Program-made: the position numbers and the translations under genes | Part shown: positions 3,034 through 53,740 of the stretch, piece after piece | Layout: every line of letters starts with the position of its first letter | How positions within the stretch are numbered: position 1 is the stretch's first letter | Assembly (NCBI RefSeq): GCF_054482525.1 | Contig: NZ_CM137006.1 | Direction: 5' to 3' (one strand) | DNA: 64,000 bases | The notes under the pieces: model-generated | What the model was told of the DNA's origin: nothing | The model's database searches: none | Seen by the model: only the letters and a program-made list of their open reading frames with translations

Positions 3034-3363
3034 ATGACCACTCATGACCGCGTTCGTCTCCAGTTGCAGGCGCTTGAAGCGTTACTGCGTGAACATCAGC
3101 ACTGGCGAAACGATGAACCCCAGCCGCATCAATTTAACAGTACCCAACCGTTCTTTATGGACACCATGGAACCACTGGAGTGGTTGCAGTGGGTGCTTAT
3201 TCCGCGAATGCACGATTTGTTAGATAACAACCAGCCGTTACCGGGCGCTTTTGCCGTTGCTCCCTATTATGAAATGGCGCTGGCGACGGACCATCCGCAA
3301 CGCGCGCTTATTCTGGCTGAGCTGGAAAAACTGGATGCTCTTTTTGCGGATGATGCGAGCTAA
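3034..3363 (+). CDS. yqcC: DUF446-family protein YqcC
   Basis: 109-aa ORF MTTHDRVRLQLQALEALLREHQHWRNDEPQP..., immediately upstream of truC. Confidence 0.85.
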   Translation: MTTHDRVRLQLQALEALLREHQHWRNDEPQPHQFNSTQPFFMDTMEPLEWLQWVLIPRMHDLLDNNQPLPGAFAVAPYYEMALATDHPQRALILAELEKLDALFADDAS

Positions 3364-15731: not shown

Positions 15732-15826
15732 TCTTACATAGCTGGATATGGCGTCAGCCGTATCCAGCGATATCTTTTACTCGAAGGTATTACACCTGAC
15801 AGACCCGCAATTTTCAGGACAATTCA

Positions 15827-20800: not shown

Positions 20801-21093
20801 TATAAATGTCTCATTAAATCTGGATAAATAAATTGACGGCGGCATCGGTAATTTGAGATTCGTTATAATTAAAAACGAACACAGAAAAAATAAGTATAAT
20901 TTTGGTGAATGTTTTTGACATGATTAAATCCCTTTACTTTATTTATTTCTGACATAATACGTTACCCCCTTTTATTATTAACGATCTGTTTCTCATTTTT
21001 CTTTAAACCTGCCTGTAACAGAATGTTAATAAGACATGATTGTTGTGGCAGGATCTGCAATAATTAACAATTATCCACTTCACAGAGAATGCT

Positions 21094-21765
21094 ATGCAGT
21101 ACCCGATTAACGAGATGTTCCAGACCCTGCAAGGTGAGGGTTACTTTACCGGCGTCCCCGCCATTTTTATTCGTTTACAGGGATGCCCGGTTGGCTGTGC
21201 CTGGTGCGACACCAAACACACCTGGGAAAAGCTTGAGGATCGGGAAGTTTCCCTTTTCAGCATTCTGGGTAAAACGAAAGAGAGTGATAAGTGGGGAGCA
21301 GCAAGCAGTGAAGACTTACTCGCAGTCATCGGTCGTCAGGGATACACCGCGCGTCACGTGGTGATTACGGGTGGTGAACCTTGTATTCATGATTTGCTGC
21401 CACTGACTGACCTGCTCGAAAAGAACGGTTTCAGTTGTCAGATAGAAACCAGCGGTACTCATGAAGTGCGTTGTACGCCGAATACCTGGGTCACCGTGTC
21501 GCCAAAGCTAAATATGCGTGGTGGTTATGAAGTATTGTCGCAAGCCCTGGAGCGAGCTAACGAAATTAAACACCCAGTTGGACGTGTACGTGATATCGAA
21601 GCACTGGATGAATTGCTTGCGACGCTGACCGATGATAAACCGCGAGTCATTGCACTGCAGCCGATTAGCCAAAAGGATGATGCCACACGTTTGTGCATTG
21701 AAACTTGCATTGCGCGTAACTGGCGTTTGTCGATGCAAACACATAAATATTTAAATATTGCCTGA
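21094..21765 (+). CDS. queE: 7-carboxy-7-deazaguanine synthase QueE (radical SAM)
   Basis: 223-aa ORF MQYPINEMFQTLQGEGYFTGVPAIFIRLQGCPVGCAWCDTKHTW... with the CxxxCxxC radical-SAM-like cluster. Confidence 0.93.
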   Translation: MQYPINEMFQTLQGEGYFTGVPAIFIRLQGCPVGCAWCDTKHTWEKLEDREVSLFSILGKTKESDKWGAASSEDLLAVIGRQGYTARHVVITGGEPCIHDLLPLTDLLEKNGFSCQIETSGTHEVRCTPNTWVTVSPKLNMRGGYEVLSQALERANEIKHPVGRVRDIEALDELLATLTDDKPRVIALQPISQKDDATRLCIETCIARNWRLSMQTHKYLNIA

Positions 21766-22019
21766 TTACACATTTATATGCGTTATAAATGGGTGGAACC
21801 TGTAAAGACTTCCACTCATTTATATTTTTTGTCGCCTCTGAAAACTCATCCATTTTGCCCATTCCGGACTAATCATTGTCATTCTCTACAAATTCTGTGG
21901 CGTTAATTTTTCTCTGGGGTGAAAATTATTGCGGTAAAGTTTGGTAGATTTTAGTCGGTATAGGATTACTTTAAATATTTAGCTTTTCAATCAATGAATT
22001 AAGTGCTCTTTAACATAAT

Positions 22020-22104
22020 GGATGTGTTGTTTGTGTGATACTGTAAAGTTGGTAGATTGTGACTGGCTTAAAAAATCATTAATTAATAATAGGTTATGTT
22101 TAGA
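22020..22104 (+). promoter_or_regulatory. AT-rich CRISPR leader immediately upstream of the first repeat
   Basis: ...ctggcttaaaaaatcattaattaataataggttatgtttaga directly abuts repeat 1; matches my recollection of the type I-E leader at the ygcE-queE CRISPR of E. coli. Confidence 0.7.
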
Positions 22105-22255
22105 GAGTTCCCCGCGCGAGCGGGGATAAACCGAAAACCACGACCTGGCGATCGGCGTGCTGGATGAGTTTCCCGCGCGAGCGGGGATAAACCGGATAGG
22201 TGTTACACATATGACCAGGCACTGGCGAGTTCCCCGCGTCAGCGGGGATAACCAT
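22105..22255 (+). CRISPR. Short type I-E CRISPR array: 3 repeats (third degenerate), 2 spacers of 32 bp
   Basis: 29-bp repeats gagttccccgcgcgagcggggataaaccg (22105-22133), gagtttcccgcgcgagcggggataaaccg (22166-22194), degenerate gagttccccgcgtcagcggggataaccat (22227-22255); spacers aaaaccacgacctggcgatcggcgtgctggat and gataggtgttacacatatgaccaggcactggc; no cas genes in the window. Confidence 0.85.
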
Positions 22256-22300
22256 TCAGGTATGTTCAGGCCGGGCAGTTTCCCGCCCGGCCTTCCTCAC

Positions 22301-23779
22301 TTACGCATTCGACCAGCTCTGGATCGAATCTTCATTCCCCAGCTCACCATGCATCACTTCATACGATTTTTTCAGGATCACATCAGTGTGCTTGGTTAGG
22401 TCTTTGAAAATGCCTTTATTCATCGCGTCGTAGCGTTTGGCATTGCTCTCAACAGGCATAAAGATATCTTTCACGCGAACCATTTTGTCGACAGCCGTTG
22501 CGTAATCCGGGTATAGCCCCAGACCTACCGCCGTATTAATCGCTGCCCCCAGACTTGCACAACCATTAATGGCGTTACGGCGTGCCGGAAGGTTGAACAC
22601 GTCGGCAAAAATCTGCATAAACAGATCGCTGTTCGAACCGCCGCCAGTAATGATCACATGCTTTGCAAAGTGATTCATTTCATTACACATATTGTCGTAA
22701 TTGTTCTTCAGCGTCAGCGCCACGCTTTCCAGTATCGAACGATATATCCATGCGTAATCCATGCTGGAATCAAAGCCGATCATAATCCCGCGTTTGTACG
22801 GTTCCCACGGATTGGTCAGCCAGTCCAGCACCGTCATCAGCCCATTACAGCCAGGTGGCACACTAGAGGCTTTCTTGTTGAGTAAATCTTCCGGTGAAAG
22901 ATCCTGCGCCCTGGCATCCTGAATTAACGACTCGCCTAACATGTCGCGTAGCCAGCTCACCGTCCACATGCCTTTGCGAATACCGTAACCTTCATACAGC
23001 AAGGTTTGCGGAATAGAAGACATAATCGGCCAGTACGCTACCGGATCTTTCGGCAGTGCTTTACCGTTCATCATCAGCGCGATGTAGGTGCCAAGAGAAA
23101 TCACCGCCGTTTCATCATCCAGTAATCCGGCTCCCAGAGCTTCTACCGGTTTATCACTGGTGGTACAAACAACCGGCAGCCCTGCTGGGAAATGTGTCGC
23201 CAGCGCGGCTTGAGGAGTGATATGCCCAAGAACAGTGCCCGGCATTTGCACATCAAACAGCATATGACGGGGGATATTAAACTTCTCCATGACTGCGGCA
23301 TCTTCACTCCATGCCCAGGTCTTATAATCCACCGGCCACTGACCAAAATAGTTGGCGATATTATCTTTAAACTCGCCGGTTAAGCGATGCGTCAGATAAC
23401 CTGAAAAAGAGGTGACATAGGCCACGTCAGGATTCGTATGTTCGTAAGGGCGTGTAACGCGTGCATCCTGCCAGCTGATCAACGGTGCAGCTGGCGTGCC
23501 ATCGGCTTTCAATAACGCACGGCAGCAACGGATGGATCCCAGACCAATACCGACAATATCGTCTTTATTCCCGGCAAACTGACTCATCAAATCGTGACCG
23601 GCAAAACATAATGATGCCCATAAATCGTCGTCAGGATGTTCTGCAGTATCGGCATCTGGCGTGTGCATCGGCTGTAATAAGCCTTTGCCTTCGCAAACCA
23701 CGTTACCTTCCAGATCGTACATCACCACTTTTGTGCTCTGACTTCCGCCATCAATCCCTATGATGTATTTTTTCGACAT
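22301..23779 (-). CDS. ygcE: FGGY-family carbohydrate kinase YgcE
   Basis: 492-aa ORF MSKKYIIGIDGGSQSTKVVMYDLEGNVVCEGKG..., FGGY kinase N-terminal signature. Confidence 0.88.
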   Translation of the reverse strand: MSKKYIIGIDGGSQSTKVVMYDLEGNVVCEGKGLLQPMHTPDADTAEHPDDDLWASLCFAGHDLMSQFAGNKDDIVGIGLGSIRCCRALLKADGTPAAPLISWQDARVTRPYEHTNPDVAYVTSFSGYLTHRLTGEFKDNIANYFGQWPVDYKTWAWSEDAAVMEKFNIPRHMLFDVQMPGTVLGHITPQAALATHFPAGLPVVCTTSDKPVEALGAGLLDDETAVISLGTYIALMMNGKALPKDPVAYWPIMSSIPQTLLYEGYGIRKGMWTVSWLRDMLGESLIQDARAQDLSPEDLLNKKASSVPPGCNGLMTVLDWLTNPWEPYKRGIMIGFDSSMDYAWIYRSILESVALTLKNNYDNMCNEMNHFAKHVIITGGGSNSDLFMQIFADVFNLPARRNAINGCASLGAAINTAVGLGLYPDYATAVDKMVRVKDIFMPVESNAKRYDAMNKGIFKDLTKHTDVILKKSYEVMHGELGNEDSIQSWSNA

Positions 23780-37359: not shown

Positions 37360-38094
37360 ATGTCCAAACTCGATCTAAACGCCCTGAACGAACTGCCGAA
37401 GGTAGATCGCATTCTGGCGCTGGCAGAAACTAACGCCGAACTGGAAAAACTGGATGCTGAAGGCCGCGTTGCCTGGGCGCTGGATAATCTGCCCGGTGAA
37501 TATGTACTTTCTTCCAGTTTCGGCATTCAGGCGGCGGTGAGCCTGCATCTGGTGAATCAGATTCACCCGGATATCCCGGTGATCCTGACCGATACGGGTT
37601 ATCTGTTCCCGGAAACCTACCGCTTTATTGACGAGTTAACGGACAAACTCAAGCTCAACCTGAAAGTGTACCGCGCTACCGAAAGCGCCGCCTGGCAGGA
37701 AGCGCGCTACGGCAAACTGTGGGAGCAGGGTGTTGAAGGCATTGAAAAGTACAATGACATCAACAAAGTCGAACCGATGAACCGGGCGCTGAAAGAACTG
37801 AATGCGCAAACGTGGTTTGCTGGCCTGCGCCGCGAACAATCCGGCAGTCGCGCCAATTTACCGGTGCTGGCAATTCAGCGTGGCGTATTTAAAGTGCTGC
37901 CGATTATCGACTGGGATAACCGAACTATTTATCAGTACCTGCAAAAGCATGGCCTGAAATATCACCCATTATGGGACGAAGGATATTTATCGGTGGGCGA
38001 TACCCATACAACCTGTAAATGGGAACCCGGCATGGCGGAAGAAGAAACGCGTTTCTTTGGCTTAAAAAGGGAATGTGGGTTACACGAAGGGTAA
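37360..38094 (+). CDS. cysH: Phosphoadenosine phosphosulfate (PAPS) reductase CysH
   Basis: ORF from [60 protein letters not shown]... (244 aa); the upstream in-frame extension in the track crosses the REP element. Confidence 0.93.
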
Positions 38095-38112
38095 ATATTG
38101 CCGGATAAATTA

Positions 38113-38150
38113 AACGCCTCTGTCAGAAATGATGGGGGCGTTTTTATTTT
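38113..38150 (+). terminator. Weak hairpin plus T-run after cysH
   Basis: aaacgcc...ggcgttttt attttg; short stem with a large loop, so not a strong terminator. Confidence 0.35.
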
Positions 38151-38358
38151 GCGAGCAGCATTCCGGCATTTAAAGGTGAACATCGCAGGGAGAATTAACA
38201 GGTATAGAATGGAGTTGGGTGCTTGAGGCTGTCTGGCGTTAAGCATTCGCGAGGTTCCAGATGGACAAAAGCCCCAGGCGATATTTCTATCAACCTGAGG
38301 CCAGCGTTCGAACCTAAGCAATTCGAATGTTAGTCTCTTCTTTGCAGGGAGGCAAGAC

Positions 38359-38511
38359 ATGCTGACAAAATATGCCCTTGTGGCAATCATCGTACTGTGT
38401 TGTACAGTACTGGGATTCACGCTGATGGTAGGCGACTCGTTGTGTGAGTTGAGTATCAGAGAACGTGGTATGGAGTTTAGGGCAGTTCTCGCTTACGAAT
38501 CGAAGAAGTAG
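38359..38511 (+). CDS. Hok/Gef-family membrane toxin (type I toxin-antitoxin; hokX/sokX-type locus at the cysH-iap position)
   Basis: 50-aa [53 protein letters not shown]: N-terminal TM segment, conserved DSLCE and AYES motifs, closest to HokE as I recall it; putative mRNA 5' end gggtgcttgaggct near 38217. Confidence 0.8.
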
Positions 38512-38532
38512 CCACCACGCGGGGGTAAAACC

Positions 38533-39871
38533 CATAAGCGCTAACTTAAGGGTTGAACCATCTGAAGAATGCGACGCCTCGGTGCCTCGTTAAGACGATG
38601 CCTCGCGTTCTTCAATTGCGTTTTGTAGGCTGTCAGGGATACTGTCCCACGAATGGCCACCTGTAAGCTCCAGATGACCATTTTTGTTATTCTCCACAAC
38701 GAGTTAGTTCTTCTTTTCGGATCCGGCACTTCTGGGGGGGAAATCCAGCGATGGCTGGATTATGTCGTCAATTAAAAATGCGGCGAGTAGATTAGCAAAT
38801 ATCCACGCTTTCGCGAGTTCAGGTTCCTTTGCACGCAAAGCATCCAGGTGCAGCAAACTTTTGAGCCGCTTAAAAGCCAGTTCAATTTGCCATCGCAGAC
38901 GGTAACAATCAGCCACTTGCTCTGCTGAATATTCATCTTCCGGTAATGATGTTAGCAATAGCACATGGCCCGCTGCTTCCAGCGTTTCCGCCTGAACTAC
39001 TCGTCCTTTTCGACGATTCTCGCTGAGCAGTCGGGTTTTACTGATTAATGCTTTTTCGGGAGGAAGTGATACGGCAATGAGACGTGCCGGAAAGGGAGCT
39101 CCGGCTTTTTTATTACCTGAATTGCCTATCATTACAGTGGTTTCACCGTTCTTACCGCAATCCAGCCCGCGCAGAAAACCCATCATGTCAAAGCGCATTC
39201 CTTCTGCAGTTAACCAGCGCAATCCTCGCCAGTGAACCCGGACGATATAATCAGCTTCTCCAAAAGCAAGTGAGCGGATACATTCGGGACGCGAACCGAA
39301 TCCCCGGTCAGCAATGCGTATCTCGTCTGCCGTTTGCGCAAATCGGTCCAGCCGTTCAGCGTCTCTGCTGTCGGTTAGCTCAAAATCAGTGAACTGACAG
39401 GTATGAGGATCATATCCCATATGTAGTCGCCATTCAGCGCTGCCGCCCCCGGGCGCACTGATTGCTGTTCCATCGACAAGACGCAATCTCTTTCCGCTTG
39501 TACAACCCGTAACTGCGGCGCGTACAGCAAGTGTTTGTGCGGCAAGTATGCCAAACCAGTCGGCGGCATTCCGCAGCCGCTTCAGGAGAGCCACGTCAGA
39601 TAATGTTGCAACGTCATGGAGCTGAGCCCATGCAGTGACTTCACGTAATGACATCCCCCCGGGGCCGTAAGCCAGCCCCAGACGTAGCAGAGTTGCAGCA
39701 TCACGAATTTCGCGGCGGCGGGTTAGAGCCCCGGCATTACGTGCCGAAGTATCCAGTTCTTCGGGCTTACCAATATGGGCCAGAATTGCTGACCAGTTAT
39801 CGTGAGAGTAATTCATCGGCACGTTAAATCATATCAGGCGTAATACCACAACCCTTAAGTTAGCGCTTATG
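38533..39871 (-). mobile_element. IS186 (IS4 family) insertion sequence, about 1339 bp, flanked by a 10-bp target-site duplication gggtaaaacc
   Basis: Terminal inverted repeats cataagcgctaacttaagggttg (left) and caacccttaagttagcgcttatg (right); direct repeat gggtaaaacc on both flanks; target is the palindrome cgcgggggtaaaaccccgcg. Confidence 0.9.
38704..39816 (-). CDS. insL: IS186 transposase InsL
   Basis: ORF MNYSHDNWSAILAHIGKPEELDTSARNAGALTRRREIRDAATLLRLGLAYGPGGMSLREV... (370 aa from the MNYSHD start). Confidence 0.9.
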   Translation of the reverse strand: MNYSHDNWSAILAHIGKPEELDTSARNAGALTRRREIRDAATLLRLGLAYGPGGMSLREVTAWAQLHDVATLSDVALLKRLRNAADWFGILAAQTLAVRAAVTGCTSGKRLRLVDGTAISAPGGGSAEWRLHMGYDPHTCQFTDFELTDSRDAERLDRFAQTADEIRIADRGFGSRPECIRSLAFGEADYIVRVHWRGLRWLTAEGMRFDMMGFLRGLDCGKNGETTVMIGNSGNKKAGAPFPARLIAVSLPPEKALISKTRLLSENRRKGRVVQAETLEAAGHVLLLTSLPEDEYSAEQVADCYRLRWQIELAFKRLKSLLHLDALRAKEPELAKAWIFANLLAAFLIDDIIQPSLDFPPRSAGSEKKN

Positions 39872-48851: not shown

Positions 48852-49991
48852 ATGAGCGCGGGAAGCCCAAAATTCACCGTTCGCCGCATTGCGGCTTTGT
48901 CACTGGTTTCGCTATGGCTGGCAGGCTGTTCTGACACTTCAAATCCACCGGCACCGGTCAGCTCCGTTAATGGCAATGCGCCTGCAAATACCAATTCTGG
49001 TATGTTGATTACGCCGCCGCCGAAAATGGGGACGACGTCTACAGCGCAGCAACCGCAAATTCAGCCGGTACAGCAGCCACAAATTCAGGCTACTCAACAA
49101 CCGCAAATCCAGCCAGTACAGCCAGTAGCTCAGCAGCCGGTACAGATGGAAAACGGACGCATCGTCTACAACCGCCAGTATGGGAACATTCCGAAAGGCA
49201 GTTATAGCGGCAGTACCTATACCGTGAAAAAAGGCGACACACTTTTCTATATCGCCTGGATTACTGGCAACGATTTCCGTGACCTTGCTCAGCGCAACAA
49301 TATTCAGGCACCATACGCGCTGAACGTCGGTCAGACCTTACAGGTGGGTAATGCTTCCGGTACGCCAATCACTGGCGGAAATGCCATTACCCAGGCCGAT
49401 GCAGCAGAGCAAGGAGTTGTGATCAAGCCTGCACAAAATTCCACCGTTGCTGTTGCGTCGCAACCGACAATTACGTATTCTGAGTCTTCGGGTGAACAGA
49501 GTGCTAACAAAATGTTGCCGAACAACAAGCCAACTGCGACCACGGTCACAGCGCCTGTAACGGTACCAACAGCAAGCACAACCGAGCCGACTGTCAGCAG
49601 TACATCAACCAGTACGCCTATCTCCACCTGGCGCTGGCCGACTGAGGGCAAAGTGATCGAAACCTTTGGCGCTTCTGAGGGGGGCAACAAGGGGATTGAT
49701 ATCGCAGGCAGCAAAGGACAGGCAATTATCGCGACCGCAGATGGCCGCGTTGTTTATGCCGGTAACGCGCTGCGCGGCTACGGTAATCTGATTATCATCA
49801 AACATAATGATGATTACCTGAGTGCCTACGCCCATAACGACACAATGCTGGTCCGGGAACAACAAGAAGTGAAGGCGGGGCAAAAAATAGCAACCATGGG
49901 TAGCACCGGAACCAGTTCAACACGCTTGCATTTTGAAATTCGTTACAAGGGGAAATCCGTAAACCCGCTGCGTTATTTGCCGCAGCGATAA
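48852..49991 (+). CDS. nlpD: Lipoprotein NlpD (LysM plus M23 peptidase-like activator of amidase)
   Basis: 379-aa ORF with lipobox LAGC and a Q/P-rich tandem repeat ([25 protein letters not shown]). Confidence 0.93.
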
Positions 49992-50053
49992 ATCGGCGGA
50001 ACCAGGCTTTTGCTTGAATGTTCCGTCAAGGGATCACGGGTAGGAGCCACCTT

Positions 50054-51046
50054 ATGAGTCAGAATACGCTGAAAGTTCATGATTTAAATGAAGATGCGGA
50101 ATTTGATGAGAACGGAGTTGAGGTTTTTGACGAAAAGGCCTTAGTAGAAGAGGAACCCAGTGATAACGATTTGGCCGAAGAGGAACTGTTATCGCAGGGA
50201 GCCACACAGCGTGTGTTGGACGCGACTCAGCTTTACCTTGGTGAGATTGGTTATTCACCACTGTTAACGGCCGAAGAAGAAGTTTATTTTGCGCGTCGCG
50301 CACTGCGTGGAGATGTTGCCTCCCGCCGCCGGATGATCGAGAGTAACTTGCGTCTGGTGGTAAAAATTGCCCGCCGTTATGGCAATCGTGGTCTGGCGTT
50401 GCTGGACCTGATCGAAGAGGGCAACCTGGGGCTGATCCGCGCGGTAGAGAAGTTTGACCCGGAACGTGGTTTCCGCTTCTCAACATACGCAACCTGGTGG
50501 ATTCGCCAGACGATTGAACGGGCGATTATGAACCAAACCCGTACTATTCGTTTGCCTATTCACATCGTAAAGGAGCTGAACGTTTACCTGCGAACCGCAC
50601 GCGAGTTGTCCCATAAACTGGACCACGAACCAAGTGCGGAAGAGATCGCAGAGCAACTGGATAAGCCAGTTGATGACGTCAGCCGTATGCTTCGTCTTAA
50701 CGAGCGCATTACCTCGGTAGACACCCCGCTGGGTGGTGATTCCGAAAAAGCGTTGCTGGACATCCTGGCCGATGAAAAAGAGAACGGTCCGGAAGATACC
50801 ACGCAAGATGACGATATGAAGCAGAGCATCGTCAAATGGCTGTTCGAGCTGAACGCCAAACAGCGTGAAGTACTGGCACGTCGATTCGGTTTGCTGGGGT
50901 ACGAAGCGGCAACACTGGAAGATGTAGGTCGTGAAATTGGCCTCACCCGTGAACGTGTTCGCCAGATTCAGGTTGAAGGCCTGCGCCGTTTGCGCGAAAT
51001 CCTGCAAACGCAGGGGCTGAATATCGAAGCGCTGTTCCGCGAGTAA
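50054..51046 (+). CDS. rpoS: RNA polymerase sigma factor RpoS (sigma-38), full length
   Basis: ORF from [66 protein letters not shown]... (330 aa); no internal stop. Confidence 0.95.
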
Positions 51047-51061
51047 GTAAGCATCTGTCAG

Positions 51062-51098
51062 AAAGGCCAGTCTCAAGCGAGGCTGGCCTTTTTCTTTT
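51062..51098 (+). terminator. rpoS rho-independent terminator
   Basis: aaaggccagtctcaagcgaggctggcctttttctttt. Confidence 0.7.
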
Positions 51099-51165
51099 GG
51101 TTGGGGAGCCGGTGTGTTTGTGGGCTGGATAAGCCGCGATAGCGTCGCATCCGGCAATTTGCACC

Positions 51166-51573
51166 CTATGTGTTCATCATCTTGCGCACCAACTGCATAA
51201 ACAGCTCCTTCTCTTCTGCACTCAAACGCCCCAAAAATTCCTCATCCACACTGTCACCAATCGGTATCGCCGCAGCAAGTACCTTTTCTCCTTCGGCAGT
51301 CAGCCAGACAAAGCGACGCCGCTTGTCAGCGGTGTCATGTTCGCGTCTGACTAAGCCACGATTTTCCATTCTTGCCAACATTTCTGCCAGCGTTGCTTTG
51401 GTGCTGACGGCTGCTTCCATCAGTGCCACCTGTTCGATACCTGGTTTATCAGCAATGGCGCGCATCACCGCGTACTGTGGTTTGGTCAGGTCAGGTAACT
51501 CGTGCTGCCAGCGAGCCGTATGCTGCTGAAAAAGCTGTCGTAACTGATGGAACGCTTTATTTCGTAACGCCAT
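51166..51573 (-). CDS. MarR/SlyA-family transcriptional regulator, divergent from the decarboxylase operon
   Basis: 135-aa ORF MALRNKAFHQLRQLFQQHTARWQHELPDLTKPQYAVMRAIADKPGIEQVALMEAAVSTKATLAEMLARMENRGLVRREH... (winged-helix MarR signature). Confidence 0.8.
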   Translation of the reverse strand: MALRNKAFHQLRQLFQQHTARWQHELPDLTKPQYAVMRAIADKPGIEQVALMEAAVSTKATLAEMLARMENRGLVRREHDTADKRRRFVWLTAEGEKVLAAAIPIGDSVDEEFLGRLSAEEKELFMQLVRKMMNT

Positions 51574-51597
51574 GTAAACTCCGGGCTAATTCTCTGT

Positions 51598-51610
51598 CGC
51601 TATCATAGCG
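51598..51610. promoter_or_regulatory. Palindrome cgctatcatagcg just upstream of the MarR-family gene (operator candidate)
   Basis: 13-bp perfect palindrome 25 bp upstream of the regulator start codon. Confidence 0.35.
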
Positions 51611-51687
51611 GTTTTTCAGTGACGAAGAAGATGTTGTTACTTTTCAATCCTTGCCGCTGTGGAAATGAAGGACTATGTTAATAATAA

Positions 51688-51701
51688 CGTTCGTATACGA
51701 A
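51688..51701. promoter_or_regulatory. Palindrome gttcgtatacgaac just upstream of the UbiX-like gene (operator candidate)
   Basis: 14-bp perfect palindrome about 20 bp upstream of the start codon at 51720. Confidence 0.35.
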
Positions 51702-51719
51702 CAATTAAGAGAGTAAGCA

Positions 51720-52313
51720 ATGAAACTGATCGTCGGGATGACAGGGGCTACCGGTGCGCCTCTTGGTGTGGCATTACTGCAAGCGCTGCGGGAGATGCCG
51801 AATGTCGAGACTCATCTGGTGATGTCGAAGTGGGCGAAAACCACTATTGAACTGGAAACGCCTTACAGCGCTCGCGATGTTGCCGCCCTCGCAGACTTCA
51901 GCCATAACCCGGCGGATCAGGCGGCGACTATCTCTTCCGGCTCCTTTCGTACCGACGGCATGATCGTTATTCCATGCAGTATGAAAACGCTCGCCGGTAT
52001 CCGCGCTGGTTACGCCGATGGTCTCGTAGGGCGCGCGGCGGACGTCGTGCTCAAAGAAGGCCGCAAACTGGTGCTGGTGCCGCGTGAAATGCCGCTTAGC
52101 ACAATCCATCTCGAAAATATGCTCGCACTTTCGCGCATGGGCGTGGCGATGGTGCCGCCCATGCCTGCCTTTTATAACCATCCCGAAACGGTAGATGACA
52201 TTGTCCACCACGTGGTAGCCCGCGTGCTGGATCAATTTGGCCTCGAACATCCTCACGCCAGGCGCTGGCAAGGATTGCCGCAGGCCCGGAATTTTTCTCA
52301 GGAGAATGAATAA
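51720..52313 (+). CDS. UbiX/Pad1-family flavin prenyltransferase (B subunit of a non-oxidative hydroxyarylic acid decarboxylase; EcdB/BsdB-like)
   Basis: 197-aa ORF MKLIVGMTGATGAPLGVALLQAL... (UbiX N-terminal GMTGATG signature). Confidence 0.85.
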   Translation: MKLIVGMTGATGAPLGVALLQALREMPNVETHLVMSKWAKTTIELETPYSARDVAALADFSHNPADQAATISSGSFRTDGMIVIPCSMKTLAGIRAGYADGLVGRAADVVLKEGRKLVLVPREMPLSTIHLENMLALSRMGVAMVPPMPAFYNHPETVDDIVHHVVARVLDQFGLEHPHARRWQGLPQARNFSQENE

Positions 52314-53740
52314 TGGCATTTGATGATTTACGCAGCTTTTTACAGGCGCTTGATGACCACGGCCAGTTACTGAAAATCAGCGAAGAGGTGAACGCGGAAC
52401 CGGATCTGGCTGCCGCTGCCAACGCCACCGGGCGTATCGGCGATGGTGCACCGGCTCTGTGGTTTGACAATATTCGCGGCTTTACCGATGCCCGCGTGGC
52501 GATGAATACCATCGGTTCCTGGCAGAACCACGCGATTTCCCTCGGCCTGCCGCCAAACACCCCGGTTAAAAAACAGATTGATGAGTTTATCCGCCGCTGG
52601 GATAACTTCCCCATTGCCCCGGAGCGCCGCGCCAATCCAGCCTGGGCGCAGAACACCGTCGATGGCGACGAGATCAACCTGTTCGATATTCTGCCACTGT
52701 TTCGTTTAAACGACGGTGATGGCGGTTTCTATCTCGACAAAGCGTGCGTGGTTTCCCGCGATCCGCTTGATCCGGATAACTTCGGCAAGCAGAACGTCGG
52801 CATCTACCGTATGGAAGTGAAGGGTAAGCGTAAGCTCGGTCTGCAACCGGTGCCGATGCACGATATCGCCCTGCATCTGCATAAAGCGGAAGAGCGCGGT
52901 GAAGATCTGCCGATTGCAATCACGCTCGGTAACGATCCGATCATCACCCTGATGGGGGCCACGCCGCTGAAATACGATCAGTCTGAGTATGAAATGGCAG
53001 GCGCGCTGCGCGAAAGCCCGTATCCGATCGCCACCGCGCCATTGACCGGTTTTGATGTGCCGTGGGGCTCGGAGGTGATCCTCGAAGGAGTCATCGAAAG
53101 CCGCAAACGCGAGATTGAAGGGCCATTCGGTGAGTTTACCGGCCACTACTCAGGCGGGCGCAATATGACCGTCGTGCGCATTGATAAAGTCTCTTATCGC
53201 AGCAAACCCATTTTTGAATCGCTCTATCTCGGGATGCCGTGGACGGAAATCGACTACCTGATGGGTCCAGCCACCTGCGTGCCGCTGTATCAGCAACTGA
53301 AAGCCGAGTTCCCGGAAGTGCAGGCGGTGAACGCCATGTACACCCACGGCCTGCTGGCGATTATCTCCACCAAAAAACGCTACGGTGGCTTTGCCCGCGC
53401 GGTGGGCCTGCGTGCGATGACCACGCCACACGGTCTGGGCTACGTGAAGATGGTGATTATGGTCGATGAAGACGTTGATCCGTTCAACCTGCCGCAGGTG
53501 ATGTGGGCGCTCTCTTCGAAAGTGAACCCGGCAGGGGATTTGGTGCAGTTGCCGAATATGTCCGTGCTGGAACTCGACCCAGGCTCAAGCCCAGCAGGGA
53601 TCACCGACAAGCTGATTATCGACGCCACCACGCCTGTCGCCCCGGACAACCGTGGTCACTACAGCCAGCCCGTGGTGGATTTGCCGGAAACCAAAGCCTG
53701 GGCTGAAAAACTGACCGCTATGCTGGCCGCACGTAAATAA
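52313..53740 (+). CDS. UbiD-family decarboxylase (C subunit; EcdC/BsdC-like)
   Basis: 475-aa ORF MAFDDLRSFLQALDDHGQLLKISEEVNAEPDLAAAANATGR...; start overlaps the upstream stop. Confidence 0.85.
   Translation: MAFDDLRSFLQALDDHGQLLKISEEVNAEPDLAAAANATGRIGDGAPALWFDNIRGFTDARVAMNTIGSWQNHAISLGLPPNTPVKKQIDEFIRRWDNFPIAPERRANPAWAQNTVDGDEINLFDILPLFRLNDGDGGFYLDKACVVSRDPLDPDNFGKQNVGIYRMEVKGKRKLGLQPVPMHDIALHLHKAEERGEDLPIAITLGNDPIITLMGATPLKYDQSEYEMAGALRESPYPIATAPLTGFDVPWGSEVILEGVIESRKREIEGPFGEFTGHYSGGRNMTVVRIDKVSYRSKPIFESLYLGMPWTEIDYLMGPATCVPLYQQLKAEFPEVQAVNAMYTHGLLAIISTKKRYGGFARAVGLRAMTTPHGLGYVKMVIMVDEDVDPFNLPQVMWALSSKVNPAGDLVQLPNMSVLELDPGSSPAGITDKLIIDATTPVAPDNRGHYSQPVVDLPETKAWAEKLTAMLAARK

Follow-up and report, generated by a model that had tools for sequence, protein, structure and literature searches.

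The short type I-E array between queE and ygcE is very probably a CRISPR-II array of the CRISPR2.2-3 form, carried by a strain that lacks cas genes, in which ordinary phage memories are held in an inert state and persist by descent and local recombination. It is already known in kind, being an ordinary remnant in a well-described E. coli locus. The window, by which we mean the whole 64-kb (64,000-nucleotide) stretch of DNA analysed here, comes from a region that is 100% identical to E. coli PCN033 (NZ_CP006632.1), an extraintestinal pathogenic strain that is cas-less at the sites examined and has a short CRISPR2.2-3 array. A search of the literature on PCN033 and CRISPR found nothing on the native arrays of this strain.

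Array anatomy and locus identity

A repeat finder and direct reading of the sequence both identified three direct repeats of 29 nt with a period of 61 nt, which together occupy positions 22105-22255 (Table 1). We scanned the window with the K-12 type I-E consensus GAGTTCCCCGCGCCAGCGGGGATAAACCG at up to three mismatches and obtained two matches, corresponding to repeats 1 and 2, and none elsewhere in the window, whereas 100 shuffles of the window gave 0.00 matches expected. Repeat 1 departs from the consensus at one position and repeat 2 at two. The C>T substitution of repeat 2 converts the outermost stem pair from C-G to U-G, and the hairpin is retained in both repeats (−15.1 kcal/mol for repeat 1 and −12.2 kcal/mol for repeat 2); the 7-bp stem is present in all three. 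The locus therefore displays the hallmarks of type I-E (CRISPR2) arrays: 29-nt repeats with a 7-bp hairpin, unique 32-nt spacers at a 61-nt period, an AT-rich leader upstream, and a degenerate repeat at the leader-distal end. These observations confirm a three-repeat, two-spacer type I-E array.

Table 1. Features of the queE-ygcE array and of the cysH-iap interval (window coordinates).
Feature	Position	Strand	Description	Sequence
Leader (leader 2.3 type)	21766-22104	+	339 nt, queE stop to repeat 1, 32% GC	
Repeat 1	22105-22133	+	29 nt, I-E/CRISPR2 type, loop variant GCGA	GAGTTCCCCGCGCGAGCGGGGATAAACCG
Spacer 1 (sp1)	22134-22165	+	32 nt, leader-proximal, newest	AAAACCACGACCTGGCGATCGGCGTGCTGGAT
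Repeat 2	22166-22194	+	29 nt, one C>T relative to repeat 1	
Spacer 2 (sp2)	22195-22226	+	32 nt, leader-distal anchor, oldest	GATAGGTGTTACACATATGACCAGGCACTGGC
Terminal repeat	22227-22255	+	3' end degenerate; same type as last repeat of K-12 CRISPR2.2	GAGTTCCCCGCGTCAGCGGGGATAACCAT
GC-rich hairpin	22269-22292	.	between array and ygcE stop codon; read from sequence	GGCCGGGC-AGTTTCCC-GCCCGGCC
cysH-iap interval	38094-38638	.	usual site of cas-E and CRISPR2.1; 544 bp, hok/sok only	

The array is flanked by queE (21094-21765, + strand) and ygcE (22301-23779, − strand). Gene order on the queE side runs syd ... barA-rlmD-relA-mazG-pyrG-eno-ygcG-queE, and beyond ygcE it continues ... queD-cysJIH-hok-iap-cysDNC ... 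rpoS ... mutS. The corresponding order in K-12 MG1655 is queE, leader, CRISPR2.3 (7 repeats), approximately 0.5 kb of AT-rich DNA, CRISPR2.2, and ygcE, where CRISPR2.2 ends in ATGTTCCCCGCGTCAGCGGGGATAACCAT followed by tcaggtatgttcaggccgggcagtttcccgcccggcc. PCN033 lacks the 0.5-kb inter-array segment of K-12, and its terminal repeat GAGTTCCCCGCGTCAGCGGGGATAACCAT, together with the tcaggtatgttcaggccggg... that follows, equals the end of K-12 CRISPR2.2. Because a CRISPR2.3-type leader is here joined to the CRISPR2.2 terminal repeat and downstream hairpin, we assign the locus to the fused, single-array CRISPR2.2-3 form. Consistent with this assignment, a single array lies between ygcE and ygcF (queE) and ends in the CRISPR2.2 terminal repeat; CRISPR2.2-3 is the published single-array form of the E. 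coli CRISPR-II locus (Diez-Villasenor et al. 2010; Almendros et al. 2014, PMC3903273). The GC-rich hairpin downstream of the array is identical in K-12, 1190, and 2012C-4221 and has no T run after it; it may mark where transcription of ygcE, or of the array, ends.

The leader is identical to the K-12 CRISPR2.3 leader at 316 of 339 positions (93%), with the similarity rising toward the array (99/100 over the last 100 nt and 60/60 over the last 60 nt). It is also a recombinant mosaic: its queE-proximal 160 nt (21766-21925) agree with strain 1190 at every position and show 16 differences from 2012C-4221, and in the following 179 nt (21926-22104) it is 2012C-4221 that is matched throughout and 1190 that departs, at 13 sites. 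Promoters reside in the leaders adjoining CRISPR2.1 and CRISPR2.3 (Almendros et al. 2014, PMC3903273), and leader 2.3 is conserved in strains without cas-E (PMC3903273). A simple sigma-70 scan of the leader returned no consensus site on the + strand, and its putative promoter function is assigned here by homology to K-12 (PMC3903273).

The original prediction, made from the letters of the window, had placed between queE and ygcE a type I-E array that has a leader, contains two 32-bp spacers, and closes with a degenerate repeat, all of which is borne out by direct reading of the repeats, spacers, and flanks. The interval it had drawn, 22020-22300, covers the array together with the promoter-proximal portion of the leader, which in full starts at 21766.

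Several other features of the window were recorded. The relA-mazG intergenic region (15732-15826) lacks the mazE-mazF pair in PCN033, whereas 1190 and 2012C-4221, two strains with the sp2 anchor, have mazEF there. A full-length CsrB sRNA lies at 2632-2991 on the + strand (Rfam RF00018, 382.9 bits), in its expected place near syd. Between ygcG and queE, a small frameshifted 'hypothetical protein' pseudogene occupies 20814-20955 and is a pseudogene in 1190 and 2012C-4221 as well. Finally, an operon for subunits B, C, and D of a non-oxidative hydroxyarylic acid decarboxylase, with a MarR-family regulator, is found at about 49817-52638, between ygbN and rpoS, within the variable mutS-rpoS region of E. 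coli.

Phage origins and distribution of the spacers

The two spacers differ in how widely they are shared. Sp1 occurs in three of 5426 complete E. coli genomes, always in the queE-ygcE array: PCN033, SCU-102 (human, USA), and 19KM1776 (dog, Switzerland). All three genomes lack cas-E, and their arrays are identical. An identical copy of sp2, by comparison, is present in 35 of the 5426 genomes and a single-mismatch variant in one more, again always in the queE-ygcE array. In all seven other arrays of its group that were read, sp2 is the last spacer: five have the order [a,b,c,sp2], one is [a,b,sp2], and one (2012C-4221) is [d,e,f,sp2'], as compared with [sp1,sp2] in PCN033. As sp2 is always last, we regard it as the ancestral anchor of this spacer group; spacers shared among CRISPR-II arrays lie mostly at the leader-distal end (PMC3903273).

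A search of the phage collection with sp1 returned only a weak match to the Fels-1 portal gene (26/32, E=0.3), in which the differences fall mostly at third codon positions. For the donor, we scanned IMG/VR with a codon-degenerate pattern for NHDL[AV]IG[AV]LD, which retrieved 48 contigs. The best match, in UViG_2529293142_000021 (positions 487-518 of locus L008), is identical to sp1 at 31 of 32 positions and has ATG, a canonical I-E PAM, directly 5' of the protospacer; the sole mismatch is at position 23, outside the seed. The open reading frame containing this protospacer encodes a portal protein (PHROGs phrog_21, E=5e-115; Pfam Phage_portal_2), and it sits within a lambda-like head module consisting of GpA terminase, portal, ClpP-capsid fusion, and decoration protein. 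Prophages in the assemblies GCA_016998275.1, GCA_012710875.1, and GCA_035967155.1 contain the same portal protein and protospacer, as do many SRA assemblies; the protospacer lies at 3209-3240 in loci L082-L085, and an unaltered copy of the portal protein occurs in 172 collection blocks, three NCBI draft assemblies among them. None of the 5426 complete E. coli genomes contains this protein or its phage protospacer, and the pattern gave 0 matches in GTDB species-representative genomes. Among deposited phages, Citrobacter phage Chris1 and Hafnia phage yong2 come nearest to the UViG_2529293142_000021 locus, at approximately 66% identity. By these matches, sp1 derives from the portal gene of a lambda-like phage.

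Sp2 agrees at 29 of 32 positions with a tail protein gene of Escherichia phage phiSTEC1575-Stx2k (E=5e-4), and 41 E. coli genomes likewise have 29/32 matches in genes with the annotation 'phage tail protein' or 'prophage tail fibre'; 17 IMG/VR contigs match as well. All three mismatches to the tail genes are synonymous, with both sequences encoding DRCYTYDQAL, so the true donor was a close variant of these tail genes. The homologues in all 17 IMG/VR contigs and in phiSTEC1575-Stx2k have AAA at the PAM position, not AAG or ATG. Since AAA and AAG are both lysine codons in the frame of the protospacer, a donor with an AAG PAM is plausible. Relative to the known targets, sp2 also has a seed mismatch at position 4. 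Judged from its matches, sp2 derives from a prophage tail protein gene.

The comparison with ygcE-queE arrays of other strains and the searches of phage, plasmid, and E. coli genomes, both of which had been proposed with the original prediction, thus yielded the distribution above (sp2 in 36 and sp1 in three of 5426 genomes), phage portal and tail matches, no plasmid match above chance level, and no second site in the PCN033 chromosome at E≤1. In the plasmid collection, both spacers gave chance-level partial matches only, mostly to GC-rich genera. The prediction had further held that the array would be an ordinary inherited remnant if its spacers were ancestral, widely shared, and devoid of protospacer matches. 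Half of this description applies: sp2 is a shared ancestral anchor, but sp1 is rare, and both spacers have phage protospacer matches.

Absence of cas genes at the canonical sites and probable history of the array

The RefSeq annotation, covering 1766-42300 and the remainder of the 64-kb window, contains no cas gene, in agreement with the original prediction, and the two canonical cas sites of the source genome are empty as well. At cysH-iap and in the window, the complete type I-E set (cas3, cse1, cse2, cas7, cas5, cas6e, cas1, and cas2) is not present. The cysH-iap interval instead contains a Hok coding sequence (38359-38511) and an Rfam sok match (38217-38374), and a scan with the K-12 consensus found no I-E repeat in it. 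Alignment of this interval from three strains showed it to be colinear and 544-545 bp long, with PCN033 identical to 1190 at 543/544 positions and to 2012C-4221 at 524/545. The same cysH-hok-iap order without cas-E was seen in all five strains inspected (PCN033, 1190, 2012C-4221, SCU-102, and 19KM1776). Across the 5426 complete E. coli genomes, the whole cysH-hok/sok-iap junction is found in 592, while most others match the cysH-hok part only. We considered hok/sok as a replacement of the cas operon and rejected the idea, as hok/sok beside cysH is normal in most strains, including carriers of cas-E1. On the 3' side of hok, at about 38494-38740, there are also matches to fragments bearing an IS421/IS4-like transposase annotation and to hokD neighbourhoods of plasmids. 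Together, the distribution of the junction and the IS-like matches 3' of hok fit the published scenario of IS-mediated cas-E deletion, in which cas-E was deleted repeatedly in E. coli, leaving hok/sok arrangements (PMC3903273).

The clpA-infA interval is the only known site of the E. coli I-F system, and in PCN033 it contains no cas-F genes. The array is therefore an orphan with respect to both canonical cas loci, cysH-iap and clpA-infA. Outside the window, at about 983692-983779 of the PCN033 record between clpA and tRNA-Ser/infA, PCN033 carries an orphan CRISPR4 (I-F) mini-array of two repeats, made up of GTTCACTGCCGTACAGGCAGCTTAGAAA, the 32-nt spacer GCCAACCGAAAGAAAAACTCGATTTTTATACC, and a degenerate repeat.

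On this basis we propose that, in the PCN033 lineage, the type I-E cas operon and CRISPR2.1 were deleted from the cysH-iap interval, and that both spacers would have been acquired from temperate phages while the ancestor, or a recombination donor, still had Cas1-Cas2. Sp2, the ancient anchor of its spacer group, would have come from a lambdoid or Stx-type prophage tail gene, and sp1 from the portal gene of a lambda-like phage, beside a canonical ATG PAM. The leader promoter, mapped in K-12, probably drives a short pre-crRNA of approximately 0.2 kb toward the hairpin at 22269-22292. Without Cas6e this transcript would not be cut into crRNAs, and without Cascade and Cas3 there would be no interference, leaving an inert array that may be maintained through inheritance and local recombination. 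It is best regarded as a remnant passed down and in slow decay, as indicated by the point mutation in repeat 2 and by spacer loss in relatives. If Cas proteins were supplied, sp1 should be proficient for interference against its known target because of the ATG PAM and the single mismatch outside the seed, whereas sp2 should not be, even then, because of its seed mismatch and the AAA PAM.

A single colinear, cas-less cysH-hok/sok-iap junction is found in three lineages that also have the sp2 anchor in common (one with a single-base variant), and yet their leader-proximal spacers are unrelated, namely [sp1], [a,b,c], and [d,e,f]; the PCN033 leader, in addition, is the mosaic described above. Such a pattern could arise if, once cas-E was gone, new spacers were taken up or array heads exchanged through transiently transferred Cas1-Cas2 or array segments, making the array a live substrate; we think there is only a slight chance of this. 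Among the spacers of 2012C-4221, e and f are unique to that genome, while the first 28 nt of d equal a spacer in 391 other genomes, which suggests shared ancestry or recombination. The differing leader-proximal spacers are most simply accounted for by recombination inside the CRISPR-II locus and by the loss of different spacers from ancestral arrays that were longer, both of which agree with published accounts. Acquisition after cas loss is not required and is unlikely. Were post-loss change to occur, orphan CRISPR-II arrays would continue to evolve and could be re-armed in genomes that have no cas genes of their own, which would bear on how CRISPR memory survives cas loss, but nothing here requires it.

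The remaining alternatives concern what the array does, or whether it is an array at all. PGAP annotates no CRISPR at this site of PCN033, and Rfam returned no CRISPR-DR family match, either for the whole window at gathering thresholds or for 21766-22300 at E≤1, as might be expected of a chance repeat or an assembly artefact. The Rfam result is uninformative because repeat identity was demonstrated directly, and with consensus matches at 0.00 chance expectation, a period of exactly 61 nt, a leader and locus homologous to K-12, and an identical array in two independent assemblies, we dismiss this explanation entirely. A self-targeting or regulatory RNA, in which pairing of a spacer with a gene of the host chromosome would modulate that gene, had been raised in the original prediction. 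The intact leader and the hairpins kept in the repeats make an RNA product plausible; however, at E≤1 each spacer is found only once in the PCN033 chromosome, in its own array, the next-best sites in the window reach 20-21/32 (chance level), both spacers have clear origins in phage structural genes, and the canonical sites encode no Cas proteins that could use such a guide. We accordingly regard this role as unsupported and exceedingly improbable. An anti-cas function, in which the spacers target incoming cas genes and block re-establishment of an active I-E system, would have a precedent in the I-F mechanism described for the same species (Almendros 2016, as summarised in PMC5972030), and PCN033 does carry an orphan CRISPR4 mini-array. 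No listed match of either spacer lies in a cas gene, however, among the 5426 E. coli genomes, many of which have cas-E: sp1 matched only the three arrays, and sp2, among the 60 of 77 matches listed, hit arrays, prophage tail genes, or unannotated sites. An anti-cas function is thus hardly credible.

A dormant, reusable memory, functional for both interference and adaptation once a cas-E module is re-acquired horizontally, has more in its favor, and we still consider it improbable. The last 60 nt of the leader equal those of K-12, two canonical repeats are retained, and sp1 mismatches its ATG-flanked protospacer only outside the seed. Arrays of the cas-less E. coli strain BL21-AI reportedly take up spacers when Cas1-Cas2 is supplied from a plasmid (Yosef, Goren and Qimron 2012). 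In addition, cas-E modules are exchanged among E. coli lineages (PMC3903273). Against this, there is no evidence of selection for retention; the very short array, the mutated repeat 2, and the spacer loss seen between [a,b,c,sp2] and [a,b,sp2] fit a pattern of neutral decay; and sp2 combines its seed mismatch with a non-canonical PAM relative to all known targets. Our preferred reading, an inert CRISPR2.2-3 remnant of ordinary phage memories, matters little beyond annotation, adding one more short array of this form in a cas-less extraintestinal pathogenic E. coli. The spacers are usable as lineage markers, with sp1 plus sp2 defining a three-genome clade and sp2 a group of 36 of the 5426 genomes.

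Comparison with known arrays

CRISPR2.3 and CRISPR2.2 of K-12 MG1655, which constitute its CRISPR II, share repeat family, orientation, and flanking genes with the PCN033 array. K-12 has two arrays of 7 and 3 repeats about 0.5 kb apart, whereas PCN033 has one fused array of 3 repeats, and the two strains have no spacer in common. K-12 also keeps cas3-cse1-cse2-cas7-cas5-cas6e-cas1-cas2, in trans 24 kb away, while PCN033 is without the cas-E genes. In BL21 and BL21-AI, too, an I-E array with an intact leader resides in a genome without cas, inert alone and competent when Cas proteins are supplied; this competence is reported to have been demonstrated by experiment for BL21-AI only, whereas we infer it for the PCN033 array. 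The orphan CRISPR4 (I-F) arrays of E. coli are likewise short, became orphan after cas loss, and belong to the same species, but they have an I-F repeat type, unlike the I-E array here. According to PMC5972030, which summarises Almendros et al. 2016, CRISPR4 spacers match cas-F genes and have a demonstrated anti-cas role, whereas the spacers described here match phage portal and tail genes.

The closest counterparts are the other CRISPR2.2-3 arrays of E. coli, which occupy the same site between ygcE and ygcF/queE, with leader 2.3, a 29-nt type 2 repeat, 32-nt spacers, and a degenerate terminal repeat that, like the sequence after it, is shared with K-12 CRISPR2.2, and which are known also in strains without cas-E. 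CRISPR-II persists after cas-E deletion (PMC3903273), and I-E repeat counts range from 2-3 to about 30, are lower in pathogens (Garcia-Gutierrez et al. 2015, PMC4489801), and are few in pathogenic and cas-less strains (PMC4489801); the short PCN033 array fits both patterns. From other CRISPR2.2-3 arrays it shows no difference of kind: the PCN033 copy stands at the short end of the range with its three repeats, has the GCGA loop variant of the repeat, and carries a leader-proximal spacer that is found in only three of 5426 complete genomes.
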